A stretch of DNA of 64,000 nucleotides, taken from positions 512,001-576,000 of the forward strand of contig CAWFGE010000008.1 in NCBI GenBank assembly GCA_963815195.1, read 5' to 3'. This DNA is from an uncultured Planctomycetaceae bacterium. GTDB lineage: Bacteria > Planctomycetota > Planctomycetia > Planctomycetales > Planctomycetaceae. The notes below the pieces were generated by a model that ran no database searches, was not told where the DNA came from, and saw nothing but the letters and a program-made list of their open reading frames with translations. This document shows positions 48,358 to 64,000 of the stretch, piece after piece; position 1 is the stretch's first letter, and each line of letters begins with the position of its first letter. Both the position numbers and the translations under genes were made by a program.

Positions 48358-49799
48358 CTACGACTTGATCTGGTCGAATGCGGCGAGAGCTGCTTGTCGG
48401 GCCTCGGCGTGATCGACGAGCGGCAACGGGTAGTCTCGTCCGAGGGTGACGCCCGCCTTTTTTAAAACGTCCGCCGGTGCGTCCGAGGGCCGGTGGACCC
48501 AGCGGTCGGGCAGGTCAACGAGTTCGGGAACAAAGCGGCGAACGTACCGGCCTTCGGGGTCGAACTTTTCGCCCTGGGCGACCGGATTGAAAATGCGAAA
48601 GTACGGCGCGGCATCGGCCCCGCAACCGGCGGACCATTGCCAACCCATCGTGTTGTTCGCCAGGTCCGCATCGACCAGCGTGTCCCAAAACCATTTCGCC
48701 CCTTCCTTCCAGTGGAGGCGAAGATCCTTCGTCAAAAACGATGCGACGATCATCCGCACGCGATTGTGCATCCACCCCGTGGCCCACAACTGCCGCATGC
48801 CCGCATCCACAATCGGAAACCCCGTGCGGCCCTTCTGCCAGGCTTGGAGGGCTTTGGGGTCTTCCTGCCAGGGGAAGTTTTTGAACCGCGCATGTAAGGG
48901 CTCATCGCTGGTGGCGGAAAAATGAGAGAGCACATGCTGAGCAAACTCCCGCCAGCCCAGTTCCGAAAGATAGGCCCCGGCGCTCTTCCCGCCAGCGGTT
49001 CGCAGATCGCTTCCCGCGGCGTCCTGCACCATGCGCAGATTTGCCAGGGGCTGATTTCGCCAAAGTGCACATGCGGTGAAAGCTCGGAAGTGCCCCGCTC
49101 GTACGGTTCATCGCGCTTGGTCCGGTAACGGCTCAAGGCCTGATCGAGAAACCGCGCGAGCCGCTGTTTGGCTCCGGCTTCTCCCGGCGTCCAGGTCTCC
49201 CGCAGTCCGCCGGCCCAGTCGATTTCGGGTTCCAACTGAAATGCATCCAGCGCGGCGGACGAGGGCCAGGTCTTCGGAGCGGGCCAGCGCGATGGCGCCG
49301 CGAGCGGCTCGCGCGTCGCGTCGCGGCTTTGACAGTTCTTCCAAAACGGCGTAAAGACTCGGTAAGGACGGCCCTGTTTCGTGGAGATTTCCGCCGGCTC
49401 AAACAACAGGCTGCCGTTCGATGTGTGGACCTCGACACGCTCGCCGAGTTCCCGTTCCAATTTGCGGTCGCGGTTCGCGAGCGCTGGTTCGTAAAGCCGA
49501 TTCCAAAACACCCCGGCAGCGCCGGTTTCTTCGATGAGCGACTTGAGCGCCTCGCCGCTGGGACCGGCACGAAGAATCAATCGCGACTTTCTGCCATGAA
49601 GGCTTCGGCTCAAAGCCTCAAGCGATTGGTGCAACCACCAGCGACTGGCGGAACCGGGCGGCCAGCGGCCGGCTTCTTTGGGAGCAAAAATGAAAACAGG
49701 AATCACCGGCCCGCCCCGCTCCACCGCCGCCCAGAGCGCGGGGTTATCCTCCAAGCGGAGATCTCGCCGAAACCAGACAATCGCAGGTTGGGAGCACAT
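48358..49799 (-). CDS. phrB: deoxyribodipyrimidine photolyase (class I/III CPD type), one indel near 49033
   Basis: IVWFRRDLRLEDNPAL, Y.VFTPFW, TSELSPHVHFGEISP | ELGWREF, GRTGFPIVDAGMRQLWATGWMHNRVRM, GWQW.AG.G.DAAPYFRIFNP. Confidence 0.93.
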
Positions 49800-52679: not shown

Positions 52680-53109
52680 CGCAATTTCTCCATGAAAAAG
52701 TGGAAAAGTTAGGAAAGGGGTAAAAGCTATCTTAAACAGATCGGTGGAATGATTACCACCTTGTCGGGCATTCCCGTGAAATAATCCTGGCCGGGGGACG
52801 TGCCGGAAGTCCAGAAAGTCGGCCGGATCGGGCGAGGGAGGAACGGGATCGGTCCCGCAATCGATGGGCGGAGGATGAGATTCCAGGCAGACGGCGAGCA
52901 ATGCCTATTTGTGTTACGGAGAAAAGCCGCCGAGCGTTGGATTTGTTCTGAAATTCAGTAGTTCCAAAAAAGGCTCAGGAAATTGGTTTGGTTTTCAAGA
53001 GCCGCGCACGAAGTAAGCGGTTTTCAGGGACTAGACAACGCAAGACCGCTTACTTCGTGCGCGGCTCAGGCATTTTTGGAAATACTGAAATTGGCTCGCC
53101 GGGTGCGGT

Positions 53110-56100
53110 TCACTGCGCGGCCGCGTTCGTGGCTTTTTCCGGAAGGCCCCAGAATCGGATCGTGCCGTCGCTGTGGCCGGTGATGATCCAGTGGCCGTCG
53201 GGGGAAAACGTCATGCAATACACTTTCGGATCGTCTTTCTCGATGACCAGAGTGTGCACGACTTTGTAGGACTCTGTGTCCCAGAGTTTGATGGTTTGAT
53301 CCCAACTGGCGGAAACGAGCAGGGAATCATCGACCGAAAATGCGATCGCGCGAATGTCATCGTTATGTTCGCGAAGCCGTCGCCATGTCTCCTGATTTCC
53401 TGGGAATTGACCGTCCCAATATCCGATGCCCCCCAATTGGGTTCCATAGGCCATCCGTTTTTTGGATTGTCCCCCCACGGTAATCGTTTGATGACCCACG
53501 GCCACGCACAACACGGGGCCACCTTGCCCGGTAATGTGGATGACGTTGCCGTTGCCCTTGCGTACGGCGAAGCCGAGTCGGTTGCCGATTGCGGGGGCGG
53601 CCAGAGGCGGTTCCCATCGGCAGAGTTGATTGTCCATTCCGCAAGAGAGTAAGGCTGTGTCGGTAATCCACGCCACGCCTTGGACAGACGTCTTGTGACC
53701 CGTTCCATCGGGAAGGTCACTGTCTGGTTGACCGGTTTGCGCATCCCAGATTTTGATGGAATGATCGGCCGAGGCCGAGGCGAGGTAGTCTCCATTCGGC
53801 GAGAAGGCAATATCGTTAATGGGTTTCGGCTCGGTCTTTTCTCGATTGGGCCGCTTGCCTCGGGGCGCTGCACTCTCGTGGATAACATCCCGCACCACGG
53901 TCCCGCCCGAGCGATTCCAGAATTTGATATGTCCTTTGGCGCTCGCGGTGGCGATGAGTTGGTTGTCCGGGGACATGGCCACGGCTTTGACCGCCTCGAA
54001 ATGCCCCTCCAAATCATCGAGCCGTTTCTTCCCGGTGTCGGCATCCCAAACGCGGGCTTTGTAGTCCGCTCCGCCGGAAACGAATTCCGCGCCGGATGTG
54101 CCAAACGCCAACGACCAGACGGCCCCGTCATGGGCCTTGAAGGATTTCTCTTTCAGTTCCTCGACTTGCTTCGCCGTGTCGCGGGTGATGGCATTCGGGC
54201 GGCGGAAGGGGGCCGGCTCTTCGAGCGGCGGTTGGCCCAGACCCTGGGGATTCAGCAGATCCGGTTTTTCGCCCACGCCCCAAAACTCCAGCGCCCCCCC
54301 GCCCCCGCGGAAACGAGCAGCGTCCCATCCGGCGAAAGGGCCAAATGATTTCCTTGCGTTTCTTTGGCCGGCTTGGGAATGGCCCCGGCACGTGCGGGAA
54401 GGAGGTGAAGTTTCCGGTCCCCGGTCAAGACCAGCATCGATTGACTGTCCGGCGTGAAGATCAGGTCGCTCGCCGGGGAGAGCGCGTGTTCCGAGATTTT
54501 CTGGGCGGACTCGAGATCCCAGACGATGATCTTTCCCGATTCGTAGGCCGCCGCGAGGAATTCGCCGTCGCGGGAAAACTTCAGCCGCGCTACGGCCGAA
54601 GCCTCTGCGGACAGCGACGTTTTGGAACCAGTTGTCAGACTCCAAAGCCAAATCCCGCCCGTGGGCATTCCCAGGGCCACATCATATTTCTCCGATCGGA
54701 GAGGGACCGCGGCCGCGGTGACGTTCGCAGCGGGATTGCGGCCGGCTTGGGCTTTGTCCTCTTGCCGAGTTTCCACGTTCCAGCATTGGAGCTTTCCGGT
54801 CTCCGTCAAGGTGAGGAGCGTCTTTCCGTCCGGCGAGAAATCGCACCAGGCATAGGGAGCCGGGGCCTTCGCCGCAATCGGCCCGAGATTTCCTCCCTTG
54901 GCGATGTCCCAAAGTTGAATCATCCGCCCGCCGTCCGCTGGAGCCGCCAACACGTCCCCGGTCGGCGAAACGGCCAAACCTCGGAGGTTCCATTCCTCGG
55001 CGGGTGCGACGTTGACCACATGATGGAGATCCCCCGTTCGGGATTCCCAGAACCGGAGCGCCGCGTCCCGGCCCAAGGTAACGACATATTTCCCATCGCG
55101 CGAGAAAGCCGCGGCGGTGCAAGCGGCATCGTGGGCGGGGCATTCGATCCATTTCGCAAGACCGGCGGCATTCGTCGCGGACAGCACCCGCGGAGGGCCG
55201 GCGAATTTCCAGTTCGGAACAAGTCCCGCCACATCCACCGCCGGGTTCTCCTTCTCGGACACCTCCCAGACTCGCCCCTGTCCCGAGGCATGAATCACGA
55301 CAATCTGTTTGCGGTCCGAAGTCAAACGAAACGCCACCGGCGGACCGGCATTGACGCTGCCGGAACCGAATCGGCCCGCGTTTGCAGGAGACATCCCGCC
55401 GCCTGGAAAAGGCGACATCGATTGGGGATTGACCATCCCGGCCGCCGGGGCGGTGCGCAGCCGCGCCAGGGGAAACCACGTGTTTGCATCCCAGATGCGC
55501 ACCTCATCGTCCCCGGCGGTCAATAGCAACCCGTTCGGCGCAAACTCCAACGCCTTCGTCGGGCCTTCGTGAGCCTGGAACGAGACCCGTTCCCGGCCAT
55601 CGGAGTCGTAGATGTGGACGCGCTCGTCCGGCATCCCCGCCGCGATCGTTTCGCCGTCGGCCGAGAGCGCAAAACTGGTCAATTCGACCGCGAAAAAGTC
55701 ATAACTTGTCTTCCGCTGAGGAACGGGTGCCGCGTTTGGATCCCCCAAGTCCCAGATTTCCACCGAGCCGTTCAAATGAGACGCGCAGTAACGCCCGCCG
55801 GGGCTGAGCGCCAGGTTCAGACATTCGCCCGCGATTTGAAAGGTTGCGGCTGGTTGGGAAATGTCTTGGAAATTCGTGTGCACTTCCATCTTGCCGCTTT
55901 GCCCCGTCAGAATCAGCCGGCCCGCCATCGGCGAAACCGCCAGCGCCGGGACCAACGGCGGGACAAAGTCTCTTTCCTGGAGGAGCTGCCCGTCCGCGAC
56001 GTTCCACAGCTTCAGTTTTCTTTCGGCGGGAACGAGCGTCAGCAGCGTTTTGCCGTCGGGCGAGAAGCGGGCCGCGTGATCGAAAGCGAGAGTCACGGGC

Positions 56101-57115
56101 AGCGTGTGCAGCGACTGCCCGGAGCGGGCGTCGAAGATCACCGTAGCGTTGTTTTCGCTCGCGGCGAAATGCAAACCGTCGTCTGCGATCACTGCGGCAC
56201 CGATCGGAACGGGCCGAAAGATCGCCGGTTGTTTGGCCGTCCGCGAAAACTCGCGGGTTGCCGCCAACCGTTTGACGTTGCCCACGGAAACCGGTTCCGC
56301 ATTGTTTTGCGGGACGACGGCCGGCGGAGCGGTTTTCGGAGCGGGATCGACGGTCGCGACCGCGACGACCGGTTTGGGGGCCGGCTCCGAGTGGCGGTTC
56401 TCTGTTTTCGCGGAGGCTTGCTGTTCTTCGGGGACGGCTTCCCTTGACGACGGCCAAACGACGATCAACAGTCCGAGTGCCAACACCGCCGGAAGCCCGA
56501 CGATCAGCCCTTTTTGCAGAGGCGACCGGGCCTTCCACCAACTCGGGGGCGTTTCCCAAGGAATCTCGCCGGGCAGAAAACTCGCCGACGAATCCTGGGT
56601 CAAATTGCCGACTCGTTTGACCTTCTGCTTTGGCTTGCGTTGATCGTCCTTCGTCCAGACGGTGGAAGGCGGAGGGAGTTTCCGCTCGCCGGAGTCGGGG
56701 GCTGGCGGCAACGGCGGGAGCTCCGGTCCAGAAGGCTCCTCAACCGGCCGCTCGATTTCCACGGTGGGCACGTTGTTGCCGGCGACGTTGACCGTCGCCT
56801 CCGGCGGCAGCGTCAGCGAAATCTCCGGAGCGTTGTCGGCCGCAAGCCGGCGGTCATAGTCGGCCTTCTTGTCCGGATCGCTCAAACAGACCATCGCGGC
56901 CCCGACTTCCCGTTCGAGGCGCTTGACATCCTCGTAGTTCTCCGCGTTCTGCATCCGCTGGAGCAAATGGTTGCGGTTCATCGCCGCGGTCTTGATGACT
57001 TGAATGTCCTTCTCAAACCGCTCCACGCCCAGAAGCTGATACGCATCCGGCTGCACGACATCCGCGGGAAGCTTCAAATCCGCTGATAAACATTGACCCT
57101 GTCCGATGTTGCCAT
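53110..57115 (-). CDS. J-like domain + Pro-rich linker + TM helix + about three WD40 propellers (~1,335 aa; indels near 57077 and 54297)
   Basis: DAYQLLGV...EVGAAMVCLSDPDKKADYDRRL; TM GLIVGLPAVLALGLLIVVWP; many WD repeats (AHDGAVWSLAF..FVSGGADYKARVWD, LASASADHSIKIWD). Start inferred as MATSDRVNVYQRI(L)KLP by adding one T. Confidence 0.82.
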
Positions 57116-57143
57116 TGGCCCTGCTTTCGTTGATGTCTTTCAA

Positions 57144-59415
57144 TTAGCGCGCGGCGGTGAGGCGGTCGACTTTTTGGCGTTCTTCGTCGACCTGCACTTC
57201 CGAGAGCGACGCTTTGCGTTCGATTTCCGCCCCGATGCGTTTTCCCTGGCAGTCGGCGGCGACTTGAATCCGGCCGTCTTTACTAAATCCGATTTGCAGC
57301 TCGACCGGCGTGCCTTTGGGCAGGTTTCGCGGCAGCGGCCCCAAAACGCACGTGCCCAACTGGTCGCAGCTCGTGCGGTCTTCCGAATCCCCCTCGGTGA
57401 CCCGCACCCGAATCTCTCGCAGATCGCGCCGGGTCGTGCGAAACAACTGCGTGCGCGACGTGGGCAATTCGGAATTGCGAGGGATCATCACCACGTTGAC
57501 GGGCTGCCCGTGCTTGACGGCATACACCCCCACGCCGTGCGAGTTGACCAACTGCAAATCGACGGTTTCCAAATCGTCCTCGGGTTCCTCGTCCTCGCCG
57601 GGCTTGATCTGCTCCACCACGAAGCCCGCGCTGTTCGGGCCGGGCAGCATGCGGGAACCCCCGACGGCTTGTTGAGGTTCGGCGGATCCTTGATGCTCAC
57701 CCGCTCCGCGAATCGCGCCCTGCGTCTCGATCACGCCCGCATAAACCGCCGCCCCAAGCGCGACCACCGTGCTCGGATCGATGTCCGTCCGCGGCGGTTT
57801 GCCGGCGATGCGGGTCAGCATGTTCTTGACCATCGGCATCATCGTGGAACCGCCGACCATCAGCACATCTTCCACGTCGTCCCAGGTCAGCTTCGCATCG
57901 CGGAGGCAGGTCTCGACCGTCAACTCCGTCATCGCCAGCATCGACGCCGTAAGGTCTTCGAACTTGTCCCGCGTGACTTCCACGCGATTCGCGCGGCCGG
58001 CGTGCGTGCAGAGCACCGCGGTTTTTCTGAGCGTGGAAAGCTGTATCTTCGCCTTCCGGCATTCGGCCATCAGGGCTTGCAGCGATTCGGTGGTTTCCTT
58101 GGGGTTCGATCCGTGCTCGGCGGCGAACTCGTCCGCGACGTAATCCACGAGCAGCCTGGTCCCAATCCAGCCCGCCCAATTCGCGGTTGCCGCCGGTGGC
58201 CAATTCCTTCACGCGGTTTTTGCTAACGGCCATCACCGTGACGTCGAACGTCCCGCCGCCCAGGTCATAGACGACGTAGTTCTTCGTGATGGGTTTTCCC
58301 TGGGCGTCGGTGCCTGCAAACGCCGAGTCGCTGTGGAGTCCGTAGGCGATGAGCGCGGCGCTCGGCTCGTTGAGGGTCGCTTCAACTTTCAGGCCGGCGA
58401 TCTCGCCGCATTGCACCGTCGCCGCCCGCCGTTTTTCGTTGAAGAATGCGGGCACGGTGATCACCACGCGGTCGATCGGCCCGACCGCCGGCGTCGCAAA
58501 CTGCACGAGCTTTTTGAGAATCAAGGCGGAAATCGCTTCCGCCGTCAGCATCTGCCCGCCCGCGTTAAACGTCTTGCGTTCCCCCAGCGACCTTTTGACG
58601 AACTGCACGACGTTGTCCGGTTCGGCATAGGCATTGTCGAGCGCGGTCTGCCCGATCAAGGCTTCGCCGTCTTCAAAAAACACCGCCGAGGGCATGATCG
58701 GCCGCTGCAGGTCTTCGGGGTTCGAGACCACTTGCGCTTTGCCTTGATGATCGACATAGGCAATCGCGGAATAGGTCGTCCCCAGGTCGATCCCCACGAT
58801 GGCAAATTTTCGCTTGAGCCCCGGCGAGATCCGCTCCGGCGCGGGGGGAGCGGCGGCCGGTCGCGTCGAAGGCGGCGGCAGAGGCGGTGCGGTCACGCGC
58901 TCTGGTCCGTGGAGTATGGCCGGTTCAATTTCTGCGACCGGCGTGATGCAGATGTTGCCGTCCAATTCCATAAAGTCTTCGATTTCCACGAGTTCGACGA
59001 CCTGCGGAGCACGGCGTTTGATTTCCGCGAAGACCTCGTCGATTCGCGCCCCGGCCACGCATTGCCGTTCCGAAAGCCAGTCCTGGAGGTCCTCATCGGA
59101 GAGGCTGCCATGTTCCGCCTCATACGCGTCGAACTCCGTGCAGATCCGGTCGATCACTGCGCCGTCGTATTGCAGCCAGCGTAGCGGATCGCCCAGGATT
59201 TTGCGGGCCTCCGCGAGCCGGCGGAGATATTCCTTGGCCCGCCGGCGGGCCGACGGGTCGTGATGCTGCTCGCATTGGAAGAAGTATTCCGTCGCCTGGT
59301 CGATCGCCTCCAGCAGCAATTCCCGCCGGGCCTCCAGACGCCGGCAATCGATCAACTCGTAGAAGTCGCGCGGCTCCTCGCCCTCTTTCAGCCATTTTTT
59401 CAGAACAGGCTCCAC
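57144..59415 (-). CDS. atypical Hsp70 with N-terminal J-like domain (~755 aa; one indel near 58150)
   Basis: VGIDLGTTYS, VITVPAFF, NEPSAA, YDLGGGTFDVT, LGGLDWD, VGGST.MP, VALGAA, substrate domain IPRNSELP; N-terminal RDFYELI...LAEARKILGDP...YD; GTG start after AGGA. Confidence 0.88.
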
Positions 59416-59823: not shown

Positions 59824-60276
59824 TCAGTCGCCGCAACCGACGTCGAGCGTAAATGCGCTCTGCATGATCCGGCGTTCATGCCGCAGGTGGGCGGTCCACA
59901 AATTCATCCACTCTTGGAGGTCTTGGCGGATTTCGAGGACCAAAAGCTCGAAGATGTCCGGGTGGTCCATTTGCAATCGCAGCTCGCCGAGCTTTTGGAA
60001 CAGGCTTTCCTTTTCGCTGGCCAAGTCCCCAATCAGCGGGGCCCAGTTGGGAAACTGCTCCAACACCGGCTGGAGATAGCCGCCTTCGGACTTAAGTTCC
60101 ATCTCGCGCGGCAGCGCTTCCAGGAGCGCATCGAGCACCGCTCCAATCCAATGGACGGTTTGCTCGTCCGGTTGGGGTTCTTCGAGGAGATCTCGCAAAT
60201 CTCCCAACAGAATGTATTCCAAGGCCACAAAATCGGCCAAAGAACTGTCGGGTTGTGTGTTTTCGGTAAAGCTCAT
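59824..60276 (-). CDS. hemerythrin-like four-helix protein with degenerate metal ligands
   Basis: EGGYL..V....P, H..HE..I.Q.AF..DVG.GD pattern; AGGAG RBS. Confidence 0.6.
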   Translation of the reverse strand: MSFTENTQPDSSLADFVALEYILLGDLRDLLEEPQPDEQTVHWIGAVLDALLEALPREMELKSEGGYLQPVLEQFPNWAPLIGDLASEKESLFQKLGELRLQMDHPDIFELLVLEIRQDLQEWMNLWTAHLRHERRIMQSAFTLDVGCGD

Positions 60277-60493
60277 GGGGAAAACTCCTTCAGCCCGCAG
60301 AAGCAAAAACCACTCCGTGCGGCGACTTGGCGCAGAAACCGCCCGCCTTCGAAAGTTGGAGAATCCAACTCCAAGGGAGATGTGATGTTGAGTATAGCGA
60401 GACGGGCCTCAAATTGTCAAAATAATTCTGGAATGCGCACGAATAAACGATTTATACATCATTTTTCGACAATGGCTCCCCCGCCTCCGAAGT

Positions 60494-61814
60494 TCAAACG
60501 TCCGGTAGCAGCCACGGGCGGCGGTATTCAGGCCGGCCTCGGAGGGCGTTGCCTTCTTGGTCATCAATGAATGTTTCCGTTTCGGGATCGAGCGTTAATG
60601 TCCGGCCGGTGCGGACGGCGATGTTTCCCGTGTGGCACAGCACCGAGGCGGGATGACCCACCGTCTCCAGATCGCAGGCCGGCTTCTTGCGGGTCTTGAT
60701 GCAGTCCAAGAAGTTCTCGACGTGCGGGCCTTCATCGCTGTCGCCACGGCCTTCTTTGACGAGTTGGTTCTTGGGACCGTAGGCTTTCCAGCCGTTGTTG
60801 CCGAGGAGGATGTAGCCCTTGTCTCCGAACACCGCCGCGCCTTCGGATTCTCCCAGATAAGAATAGGGATTCCAGAATCCGCAACTCGTAGGTCAGGAGT
60901 CGCGGCGTCCGGCTTTCGAACTCGTAGGTGACCTGCATGGTGTCGGGCCATTCCTGCATGTCGTCGAAATACCATTTGCCCCCGGTGGCGGCGATGGTTT
61001 TCGGCAACCCCACCGGCGGCTGGCCCTCGGCTTCGAGCGCGGCATTCAGCGCGGCCATGGCCATGTCCAACCGGTGCACGCCGTCGTTTCCCAGATCGCC
61101 CGTGCCGTAGTCGTAAAACCACCGCCAGCGCCCGTGGAACCGATTTGGATTGAAGGGTCGCAACGGGGCCGGCCCGAGCCACATGTCGTAATCGACTTCC
61201 TTGGGAGGCGTCCCGTCGGGCGGACGGCCAATGCTCCCCTGCCGGCTGCTTTCCCAAGCCTTGGCGACGAGGCATTTTCCGAGGGCCCCCGTGCGAATGT
61301 ATTCCAAGGCCGACTTCAGGCGGTCCGTGCTGCGGTGCTGCGAACCCATCTGCACGATCTTCTGGTGCTTCCGCATCGCCGCGACCATTCGCTGACCCTC
61401 GGCGATGTTGTGGCTGTCGGGTTTTTCCACGTACACGTCCTTGCCGGATTGAATCGCGAGAATCGTGGGGATCGCATGCCAATGGTCCGGAATGCCCACG
61501 ACGAGGGCGTCGAGTTTGGGATCGTCGATCAGCTTGCGAAAGTCCGCTTCCGTTCGCGGAGCATGCCCCTGGCGAGACCGCACGTCTTCGACCGCCTGCG
61601 GCAAACGGCGGGAGTCGAGGTCGGCAATCACCACCACGTCGCAGTGGGGATTGGAAGCGAACGTGCGATTGAGCGCGAGCGCCCGGCCGCCCGCTCCCAC
61701 CACACCCACTTGCACCCGCTCGCTGGCGGGGGCTTTCTCGGCGGCGCCGGCGATCACCGCCGCCATCGTCGTCAACCCGGTCGCGGATGATGCAAGAAAA
61801 TCTCTGCGATCCAT
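60494..61814 (-). CDS. Tat-exported Gfo/Idh/MocA oxidoreductase, one indel near 60876
   Basis: MDRRDFL, VGVVGAGGR, PDHWHA, GKDVYVEKP, GTGDLGNDGVHRLD | HVENFLDCIKTR. Confidence 0.9.
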
Positions 61815-61941
61815 GATTCCCTCCCCTTCGATGAGTGGCGAAATTCCGGCGAAGCCCCATGATGCCAAGTCCGCCCGGAAAAATCGACCGCAAGGCACGA
61901 TTCGCTCCGCTTCGATCGTGCTCCGGTGGGGCGGGCGGGAA

Positions 61942-62841
61942 TTACGAGATCCTGTCAAATTGCCCATCTTCCGAAAAAAAGCCCAAGAGCAGTTCGTTCA
62001 CTCGCCGGCTTTCTTCGTGTTGCACCCAATGCGTGGCCTCGTCGATCAGGACCAGTCGGCCGTCGTCGCACAGGTCGAGGCTCGGCTCCACCATTTCCTT
62101 TCCAAGGAAGCGGTCTTTCGCTCCCCAGATTAAGAGCGTCGGCGTCCGGATGCGAGACGCGTTCGAAGCGGGCATCGGCGAACGCATCATCGCCCGATAC
62201 CAGTGGATCATCGACCGCATCGCTCCTGGTTGCGACCAGGCGCGGCGGTACTGCTCGAAATCCGTTTCGTCAAAAGTTCCGGGCCGGCTGCTGCGCTTTA
62301 AGCCCCGCACCAGCATTCGCCAGTTTCCCAATCCGGCGATTCTCTCGGGCAGCCAGGGAAGTTGGAAACACACGATGTACCAGCTTCGCAGCAACTGGCG
62401 AGGATTGGAGAATAGATGCCGGCGCATGACGTCGGGATGCGGACAGTTGAGAACGACGAGCCGCCGGACGTGATGGGGATAAGCCGCGGCCGTTTGCCAG
62501 GCGACCGCACCGCCCCAATCATGCCCGGCCAAATACGCCTGCTCGACGCCGGCCGCTTCAATCAGCCCGGCGACATCGGCGGCCAGCCGATCCAACCGAT
62601 AGTCCCCGACCGAACGGGGTTTTTCGCTGAGATTGTACCCCCGCTGATCGGGAACCCACACGCGAAACCCGGCTTCGGCCAGTGCCGGGATCTGAGCTTT
62701 CCAACCCGACCAGCATTCGGGAAAACCATGCAGCAGCAGAACCAGCGGCCCGTCGGGAGGCCCGGCCTTCGCCACGTGCAACCGCACGCCGTTGACGGCG
62801 ATTTCCGTGAAGTGCAGCGAATCGAATCGGTGTTGGGGCAT
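61942..62841 (-). CDS. alpha/beta hydrolase (epoxide hydrolase-like)
   Basis: LLHGFPE.W..W, PDQRGYNLS, GHDWGG nucleophile elbow, WG..D, HWVQHE. Confidence 0.93.
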   Translation of the reverse strand: MPQHRFDSLHFTEIAVNGVRLHVAKAGPPDGPLVLLLHGFPECWSGWKAQIPALAEAGFRVWVPDQRGYNLSEKPRSVGDYRLDRLAADVAGLIEAAGVEQAYLAGHDWGGAVAWQTAAAYPHHVRRLVVLNCPHPDVMRRHLFSNPRQLLRSWYIVCFQLPWLPERIAGLGNWRMLVRGLKRSSRPGTFDETDFEQYRRAWSQPGAMRSMIHWYRAMMRSPMPASNASRIRTPTLLIWGAKDRFLGKEMVEPSLDLCDDGRLVLIDEATHWVQHEESRRVNELLLGFFSEDGQFDRIS

Positions 62842-63308: not shown

Positions 63309-63396
63309 GGAGAGATGCCAGAGTGGCCGAATGGGCCGGTCTCGAAAACCGGTGTACCCTTCACGGGTACCGAGGGTTCGAATCCCTCTCTCTCCG
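63309..63396 (+). tRNA. tRNA-Ser(CGA)
   Basis: GGAGAGA/TCTCTCC acceptor stem, CCGGT-CT-CGA-AA-ACCGG anticodon arm, long variable arm GTACCC-TTCAC-GGGTAC, GGTTCGAATCC; G discriminator; CCA not encoded. Confidence 0.97.
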
Positions 63397-63413
63397 CTTT
63401 GACACCCCACGCC

Positions 63414-63452
63414 AATCGACGCCACGAAGGGATAAGTGGCGTCGATTTCTTT
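63414..63452 (+). terminator. hairpin after tRNA-Ser
   Basis: AATCGACGCCAC-10nt-GTGGCGTCGATT then TCTTT. Confidence 0.6.
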
Positions 63453-63628
63453 ACTTATGAAGTCGTCTTCATTCCCTTCGTCCGCTTCAATTGCCTCGGT
63501 CTGTTGGCTTTCGTTACTGCCAACCGCTGCCACCTCTGAGCCATTCAAAGCCAATTCCTGGGCACCAATTTGGGCACCATTTTTCTTGATGATTTTTTGA
63601 CTCTTTGATTTTGGCAAGGGCGGCAATT

Positions 63629-64000
63629 TGTGGTGGACCCCGAAAACTGGACAGCCCAATAAGGTAGAATTTGCGATGTTCATTTGTCGCATTGGGAGGT
63701 TCCGATTATGACCAGGAAGCGTCGAGCTTTGGGGTCCGCGTTCAAAGCCAAGGTGGCGTTGGCGGCGGTCAAAGGGGATAGGACGACGGCTCAGTTGGCG
63801 TCGGAATTTGGCGTCCACACGAGCCAAGTCACGGCTTGGAAAAAGCAGTTGTTGTCGGGAGCCACTGAGTTGTTCACGGATGGCCGACGTAAGCGATCCG
63901 ACGATCAATCGGCCAATGAGCAAGAACTCTATGAACAAATCGGCCGGCTGAAAATGGAAGTCGAGTGGCTCAAAAAAAAGTCGCTGACGCTGGATTAAGC
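63629..64000 (+). mobile_element. IS3-family insertion sequence, left end (runs off the window)
   Basis: TG-starting left IR (TG)TGGTGGACCCCGAAAACTGGACAG, orfA, and A8G slippery site at 63972-63980. Confidence 0.9.
63708..63998 (+). CDS. IS3-family transposase OrfA
   Basis: RKRR....FKAKVALAA......AQLASEFGVH.SQV..WKKQL HTH; LYEQIGRLKMEVEWLKKK; GGAGG RBS. Confidence 0.93.
   Translation: MTRKRRALGSAFKAKVALAAVKGDRTTAQLASEFGVHTSQVTAWKKQLLSGATELFTDGRRKRSDDQSANEQELYEQIGRLKMEVEWLKKKSLTLD

Follow-up and report, generated by a model that had tools for sequence, protein, structure and literature searches.

Gene pair and domain anatomy

A stretch of 64,000 nucleotides from an uncultured Planctomycetaceae bacterium (assembly GCA_963815195.1, contig CAWFGE010000008.1, forward-strand positions 512,001 to 576,000), called the window here, carries two genes that combine an Hsp70 with J-like domains. 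Both lie on the minus strand, as do all features within them. Gene A (57144..59415) encodes a pseudo-J-Hsp70 fusion of about 756 aa, read through one frameshift near 58152; it starts at the GTG codon at 59415, where Met1 of the homolog P0001 aligns, and stops at 57144. Gene B (53110..57115), downstream, starts with ATG at 57115, ends at 53110 and encodes about 1333 aa, read through frameshifts near 57078 and 54293, with a pseudo-J domain, a Pro-rich linker, a transmembrane (TM) helix and about three WD40 propellers. The measured gap between them (57143-57116) is 28 bp, as given in an initial annotation made from the letters of the sequence, and the J-like motifs quoted there for both genes are present. 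Genomes, loci, proteins and contigs are labelled below with G, L, P and C numbers.

Intact homologs, colinear with the pieces in the window, exist for A (P0001-5, five sequences of 752-785 aa) and for B (three sequences of 1337-1669 aa, P0008 having 1337 aa). Contigs from run X1, which may be the source sample, have one extra base at 54293 and one at 57077 (a single contig each, depth 3-4); they neither show the break in A nor cover its N-terminal part. Since intact homologs exist and the X1 contigs mend both breaks in B, the three frameshifts look like assembly errors, and pseudogene decay is rejected on the same grounds. Further genes of the window are also frame-split.

Both proteins begin with a J fold, as first proposed. 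That of A (59155..59415) has an extra N-terminal helix, an acidic helix II and a hairpin tip reading C-E-Q-H-H-D. With its AlphaFold2 (AF2) model (pLDDT 92), J domains fill the top five rows of a Foldseek search (E 0.3-1, probability 0.85-0.99) and stand at the top of a VIA comparison (Z 7.5, root-mean-square deviation (rmsd) 2.7, 77 residues aligned, which is modest for a helical domain). A profile of 16 rows, searched against PDB, finds solved J domains at E 1.8e-4 to 5e-4 (2ej7 at 1.8e-4), ranked after a designed helical repeat. For the domain of B (56832..57115), a 48-row profile reaches E. coli DnaJ at E 2e-6, and Pfam DnaJ is matched by 47 of the 48 B-type rows with E no higher than 0.1, the best at 4.8e-6. 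The model of its G419 homolog (pLDDT 89) returns J-domain entries in all Foldseek rows listed, at probability 1.0, and Z 9.2 by VIA (rmsd 4.3, 75 aligned). Comparison of the two profiles indicates homology (98.6%) at about 20% identity; they represent different subfamilies. The sequence kinship is visible only with family profiles; within the open reading frames of the window, Pfam gives no match on either N-terminal domain. Pam16 and ARC6 are not among the PDB matches listed for the A or the B domain.

The initial annotation held that neither domain has the HPD motif of canonical J domains. An exact HPD, the supposedly indispensable His-Pro-Asp trigger, is indeed absent from both, with a refinement for A, where H-H-D (59257..59265) is a degenerate HPD-like motif with His in 89% and Asp in 61% of the family. 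The tip motif of this family is Y-Q-N-H-x-D; of its 158 domains, 86 have H-x-D and 8 an exact HPD. We are unsure that the H-x-D of A lies in the canonical HPD register, since its hairpin is about one turn longer than that of DnaJ. The tip of B, M-Q-N-A, has neither HPD nor H-x-D, and HPD occurs in one of the 48 B-type rows. By the HPD motif neither domain is a canonical J domain; both are type IV, or pseudo-J, domains, in which the J domain is recognisable and HPD is non-conservatively replaced (PMC13254874). The idea that charges are reversed between helix II of the J domain and the acidic patch of the Hsp70 was weighed and set aside, as it fits the A domain (net -4) and not the core pseudo-J described below, which stays basic.

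Members of these families vary in architecture. Five tandem pseudo-J domains make up P0060 (604 aa), and in P0035, P0046, P0053, P0106 and P0134 a kinase-like domain is fused upstream of an A-type pseudo-J domain and a C-terminal TM helix. At L005 (G400), a pseudo-J relative with a true HPD in the register of the H-x-D of A adjoins an Hsp70 and is a possible intermediate.

Behind its J fold, A has a small, putatively helical subdomain typical of the pseudo-J subfamily, with a conserved W-L (59011..59154), and an acidic, Pro-rich linker (58801..59010). The Hsp70 nucleotide-binding domain (NBD; 57738..58800) follows, then a 58-aa acidic insert (57564..57737), and finally an altered interdomain linker (VDLQL) with the beta part of the substrate-binding domain (SBD-beta; 57144..57563); the Pro-rich linker is assigned from the sequence. 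Residues are numbered as in DnaK by alignment to the genome's own DnaK, with labels taken in part from PMC8215388. A is an Hsp70 (PF00012) whose NBD keeps the catalytic residues D8, K70, E171, D194 and T199, and whose SBD-beta has pocket residues that look intact. It is not a DnaK. The helical lid, the VLLLD-type linker, R167 (Ala in A), Q378 (Tyr in A), the K55/R56 salt bridges of the cleft and the GrpE loop are all missing, and the NCBIfam DnaK score is 309 bits against a cut-off of 823. In DnaK, R167 and Q378 contact the HPD aspartate (PMC8215388). A ends 38 aa past the SBD-beta anchor. True truncation of the Hsp70, a possibility raised at the outset, is ruled out: since intact homologs end at the same place, likewise with no helical lid, A is natively lid-less, a trait that the initial annotation did not mention.

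In B, the cytoplasmic side holds a juxtamembrane motif FLPGEIPW (56556..56579), found as P-G-E-x-P-W in 6/6 homologs aligned. A single predicted TM helix (56454..56510), the sole hydrophobic peak and probably of N-in topology, leads to predicted extracytoplasmic WD40 beta-propellers (53113..56300). Pfam and colinearity with P0008 give three WD40 blocks, a propeller count taken from sequence only. The Pro-rich linker, one TM helix and about three propellers read initially from the letters are thereby borne out. PADLOC returns a WD40-type match for P0008 and nothing for A.

No grpE, dnaJ or hrcA had been seen nearby. In the genome (8.9 Mb, 95% complete), the grpE and dnaJ genes are on contig C13 or, on C8, some 260 kb away, and hrcA was not found.

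The Hsp70 clade and the distribution of its pseudo-J partners

A tree of 43 Hsp70 rows was built with A represented by P0001 (77-82% identical), midpoint rooting, no outgroup and E. coli HscC not included. It groups 35 sequences apart from four DnaK and four GrpE-linked HscC-like rows, with support of 100/100. D8, K70, R151, E171, D194 and T199 are kept in 43/43 rows; R167 and Q378 are replaced in all 35 clade members and kept in all 8 DnaK and HscC-like rows. The clade is also without the K55/R56 cleft bridges and the GrpE loop. The K414 equivalent is Pro in 30 of the 35 members, and 28 end no more than 46 residues past the SBD-beta anchor, the other 7 having longer tails. When the HscA and HscC criteria of PMC8215388 are applied to the clade, the lost bridges and loop predict fast, GrpE-free nucleotide exchange. 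Seven fused Hsp70s and one unfused Hsp70 (G410) form one clade of 8 (support 100/99).

The window's own genome has six Hsp70 genes in all. Two further members of the R167-less clade (C2:17653-19731 and C23:560749-562413) have no pseudo-J gene detected beside them; an Hsp70 in a triad with GrpE-like and J-domain genes (C8:303202-306247) keeps R167 and Q378. At L076, L077 and L080, clade Hsp70s carry C-terminal extensions of 700-850 aa, and at two of these loci a pseudo-J gene lies just upstream of the Hsp70.

The same genome also encodes, at C20:356903-359679 (L040), a core pair near-universal in the family, with a lid-less Hsp70 followed by a protein that combines a pseudo-J, an MshEN-like domain and a hydrophobic C-terminus. 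B-type domains occur in 61/61 family genomes, where genome counts, here and below, include kin and are not independent. Among the matches listed, the best B-type match lies directly behind a short Hsp70 in at least 47 of the 61, and fetched DNA adds 3 more, for 50 of 61 in all. Across the phylum, 21 of 151 genomes match the B-type profile at E up to 1e-12, and 12 of 16 B-type loci of other families have an Hsp70 (not assigned to clade) within 1.5 kb. This co-occurrence is an observation of the same standing as the domain anatomy.

The fusion itself is present in 3/3 congeners, with only 4 close matches among 398 family genomes; two more distant fusions are found in G709, from another genus, and in P0061. 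A scan of a genome contig library gave one relative locus (L007) and a scan of metagenome contigs none. When 401 phylum genomes were searched with a single protein, all matches outside the own genome were weak, and a later protein search (8000 candidates, crowded) gave no additional fusion. The slot occupied here by B holds a J-TM-WD40 gene in G419, two J-Pro-TM genes with a small domain in L007 and a J-TM-FGS gene in G709. It is empty in the closest relative, G418, in which A directly adjoins the oxidoreductase gene that comes next after B in the window's genome. Of the expectation that the same fusion would recur with a conserved WD40 neighbour, the recurrence stands and the fixed neighbour does not.

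The A-domain family comprises 870 clusters at E up to 0.001. The best 150 of these include 3 Hsp70 fusions and, as other cargo, 15 WD40, 9 kinase, 6 TPR, 5 HEAT, 5 Reg_prop and 2 FGE-sulfatase proteins; among the same 150, hydropathy predicts a TM helix in 113 of the 134 proteins of at least 220 aa.

A belongs to an Hsp70 clade that has lost R167 and Q378 and adjoins the pseudo-J gene B, which places the operon within a planctomycete lid-less Hsp70 / pseudo-J system. The fusion pair is, by these distributions, best described as a rare offshoot of that system, which is Planctomycete-wide, rather than the stand-alone new system initially announced.

Relatives of the two genes were also seen in other settings. 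At C15:416409-426245 (L039) in the own genome, a GAP1-N2 operon with a Zn-ribbon P-loop gene is headed by a pseudo-J-Pro-TM gene, the closest paralog of the A N-terminal domain; the layout is the same in three congeners. Fusion-clade or sister-clade Hsp70s stand beside pseudo-J-TM genes at L112 (G410), L038 (G425), L036 (G542) and L034 (G581), with MotA/TolQ/ExbB genes at three of these loci, ExbD-like coiled-coil genes (by eye) and kinase-FGS genes, possibly parts of a larger envelope machine. In G410 and G542, kinase-FGS and pseudo-J-TM-propeller genes both adjoin such Hsp70s, and PADLOC gives weak ZorA-like matches for the MotA/ExbB gene of G410. None of the GAP1-N2, MotA/TolQ/ExbB and kinase-FGS genes flanks the operon in the window.

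The immediate surroundings hold a hemerythrin-like gene (59824-60306, minus strand, weak Pfam match), which lies upstream of A here, in L007 and in G419 and not in G418. It was excluded as a member of the system, being about 400 bp off and missing at that place in G418. Downstream of B, positions 52996-53065 hold a short palindromic repeat with about 297 blastn matches of at least 25 nt in the genome. No sigma-70-like promoter was found at the operon, and terminator-like sites are at chance level (13 vs 11.1). The regions 48358-49799, 60494-61967 and 63309-63998 of the window hold frame-split photolyase-like and oxidoreductase genes, the mark of an indel-prone assembly, and a tRNA-Ser gene followed by a transposase gene at the window end.

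Docking model, proposed mechanism and alternatives

The complex was modelled with the intact G419 homologs, using A residues 18-769 with ATP and Mg, the J domain of B as partner, and our own alignments. It scores 0.73, against 0.00 for the highest-scoring of 3 controls; the runs share no less than 85% of their contacts, and the partner has a pLDDT of 83. Of 157 solved pairs 116 attain the score mark, and of 215 mismatched pairs 2 do, a calibration only rough here, given the own alignments and the ligand. The J domain of B makes contact through helices II and III, the side that usually faces Hsp70 (the mapping to DnaJ follows from the profile match). The contacts named on A, at 420-425, 502-517 and 687-697, correspond to about 222-227, 310-325 and 442-452 in DnaK. 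The surface they form consists of the lobe-IIA helix, residues about 222-227 and loop L4,5 of SBD-beta, next to the K414-D326 / N415-T221 pairs that act as a clamp in DnaK (PMC8215388). The named contacts include neither the linker nor the equivalents of R167 and Q378. As modelled, the pseudo-J of B docks on A away from the canonical J site, on the Hsp70 body itself. At the central contact, the core pair has Asp:Lys/Arg (9/9; 27/30) and the fusion pair Leu:Met (8/8; 4/4), a contrast that gives the docking site a weak hint of support.

We consider it about an even chance (roughly 50%) that A and B form a dedicated, membrane-recruited Hsp70 module, insulated from DnaK, DnaJ and GrpE, with envelope-linked signalling or complex remodelling as its likely function and not bulk folding. 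In such a module, B would hold A, in its ATP state, at the inner membrane by way of an HPD-independent site and would gate a fast, lid-free, GrpE-free cycle of A on a local client. Client, input and role we infer: candidate clients are the juxtamembrane P-G-E-x-P-W motif in the tail of B itself and a membrane complex nearby, and the input would be set by whatever the propellers, or another ectodomain, bind outside. The J-fold domain of A may have been captured from a related membrane pseudo-J gene, to act as a cis regulator or as a second adaptor.

A broader proposal is possible and is put forward tentatively. Planctomycetes would couple J domains to Hsp70 independently of HPD, pseudo-Js docking on the lobe-IIA/SBD-beta clamp of a clade of lid-less, GrpE-free Hsp70s. 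On the cytoplasmic side this module would form the output of a family of single-pass receptors whose ectodomains (WD40, TPR, HEAT, FGS) can be exchanged. The Hsp70 would then be a transmembrane signalling switch, to which the operon adds a J-Hsp70 fusion with a cis regulator. The dedicated Hsp70 switch on a membrane receptor, recruited through J-like domains, that was first suggested for the locus keeps its pairing of Hsp70 with a membrane protein and its separation from DnaK/DnaJ/GrpE, and loses a fixed WD40 partner.

Several observations weigh against the membrane-recruited module. B is not obligatory, since in G418 A stands without a partner gene at the locus and no close ortholog of B turned up. 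For the core pseudo-J gene, the 6-12 kb fetched show no Hsp70 in 8 of the 61 genomes, and 3 further cases lie at contig ends. The plant J-like protein CJD1 failed to bind Hsp70 in tests (PMC3196505). As to the docking, J-Hsp70 complexes have already been solved, so that family likeness may partly explain the model's pass; the fused domain was part of the modelled A, at an unreported position, and may have displaced B from the canonical site. The contact pattern comes from two lineages and does not fit the family of A itself, in which Arg prevails at that place beside Hsp70s with Leu/Val. Of 19 clade-diagnostic columns, 2 fall within the modelled interface (23 of 554 positions), which is no clear or significant enrichment.

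Among the alternatives, the one that survives best makes the operon an accessory of a GTPase-centred conflict system, in which pseudo-Js couple variable sensors (WD40, FGS, TPR, HEAT, kinase) and Hsp70 to GAP1-N2/DO-GTPase machinery in trans. Paralogs of the A N-terminal domain adjoin a GAP1-N2 operon (Pfam PF20013) at 7 loci (own C15, G417, G418, G419, G425, G542 and G552), four of them in congeners, and G542 unites GAP1-N2, a pseudo-J-TM-WD40 gene, a sister-clade Hsp70, a kinase-FGS gene and a MotA/ExbB gene. HSP70, GrpE and DnaJ-FNIII are reported from about 14% of GAP1-N2 neighbourhoods (Kaur 2020, PMC7159879), and rapid turnover of the partner slot would suit a conflict system. Still, we regard this as unlikely. 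No GTPase, GAP1 or effector gene flanks the operon or the four fetched orthologous loci (L007, L029, L030 and L075), and PADLOC has no match for A. The two J-like domains, at about 20% identity, do not resemble the close duplicate pairs typical of effector-associated domains (EADs), and the near-universal core pair looks more like housekeeping than conflict. The role in signalling or conflict initially suggested for the operon draws on the neighbourhoods of relatives; no such genes flank it.

Somewhat less probable again is a private biogenesis chaperone, whereby A folds, inserts or translocates B and similar large membrane proteins, like HscC with DjlB/DjlC, and no signalling occurs. The intact-looking SBD pocket of A and its HscC-like features (lobe IB deletion, no GrpE loop; PMC8215388) fit such a chaperone, and sister-clade Hsp70s adjoining MotA/TolQ/ExbB genes in G410, G425 and G542 suggest envelope assembly or transport. 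The J domain, however, sits on the supposed client itself and is joined to many unrelated ectodomains, G418 retains A without B, and lid loss should shorten client dwell (PMC8215388).

We think it improbable that the two J-like domains serve as a scaffold, a heterodimer that tethers A to B in the manner of Pam16-Pam18 or CJD1-ARC6 while the H-x-D domain of A stimulates its ATPase in cis. The homology of the two domains, the precedents (PMC13254874 and PMC3196505) and the retained His and Asp of A, in whose register the L005 relative beside an Hsp70 has a true HPD, all suit this arrangement; yet most clade Hsp70s are unfused and keep a pseudo-J neighbour, including the unfused G410 member inside the fusion clade, and A has lost the residues that would contact an HPD aspartate. 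Least probable, and largely refuted, is a decaying or accidental fusion of no special function, for which the frameshifts in both assembled genes and the rarity of the fusion might be cited, against the intact conserved homologs, the X1 contigs and the other split genes of the window.

Significance and comparison with known systems

The membrane-recruited module would be of interest on several counts. The operon could show how pseudo-J domains work: here they come with a co-diverged, matching Hsp70 and a specific predicted docking site, so that a test of the question needs just two small, soluble proteins. For studies of lid-free Hsp70 allostery, a natural J-Hsp70 fusion together with an orthogonal J/Hsp70 pair would be useful, and the module may be relevant to the envelope biology of Planctomycetes, itself unusual. 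Neither the fusion nor the Hsp70 clade was found described in the literature searched, mostly non-subscription; Barriot 2020, on bacterial J-domain proteins, or the source data of Kaur 2020 may list them.

With DnaK/DnaJ/GrpE, the pair shares an Hsp70 NBD and SBD-beta with catalytic residues and a J fold; it differs in having no lid, no HPD and no GrpE elements, and in its altered linker. The core Planctomycete pair has the same Hsp70 clade, the same pseudo-J superfamily and the same order, Hsp70 before pseudo-J, but is unfused, near-universal and equipped with a cytoplasmic MshEN-like domain, whereas the A-B pair is rare and fused and has a large, variable ectodomain.

The type IV pseudo-Js Pam16, DNAJB13, CJD1 and ARC6/Ftn2 are likewise J folds that lack HPD, often N-terminal on a membrane protein (PMC13254874, PMC3196505). 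None of them is known to have an Hsp70 that co-diverged with it, and the binding partners of Pam16 and CJD1 are other J-type proteins; the pseudo-J genes described here accompany an Hsp70 clade from which the matching contacts are gone. The GAP1-N2 DO-GTPase systems (PMC7159879) resemble the operon in placing Hsp70 and J-type proteins beside membrane-linked variable components, and paralogs of the A N-terminal domain adjoin GAP1-N2 operons. Those systems are reported mainly from actinobacteria and firmicutes and include GrpE and FNIII, in an arrangement other than the present one, whereas the window operon has no GTPase, GAP1, GrpE or FNIII.

The operon is neither DnaK, HscC nor a GAP1-N2 system by membership, and it works most like E. 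coli HscC with DjlB/DjlC. HscC is a specialised Hsp70 with no GrpE signature and with a deletion in lobe IB, both found in A, and its membrane J partners have an altered motif, HPE in DjlB/C (PMC8215388, PMC13254874). HscC keeps its lid (PMC8215388), whereas A is lid-less, has lost R167 and Q378 and carries a J fold fused to the Hsp70. In place of HPE the motif is absent in B and H-x-D in A. The clade of A is separate from the local GrpE-linked HscC-like and DnaK rows, in a tree built from rows other than E. coli HscC.

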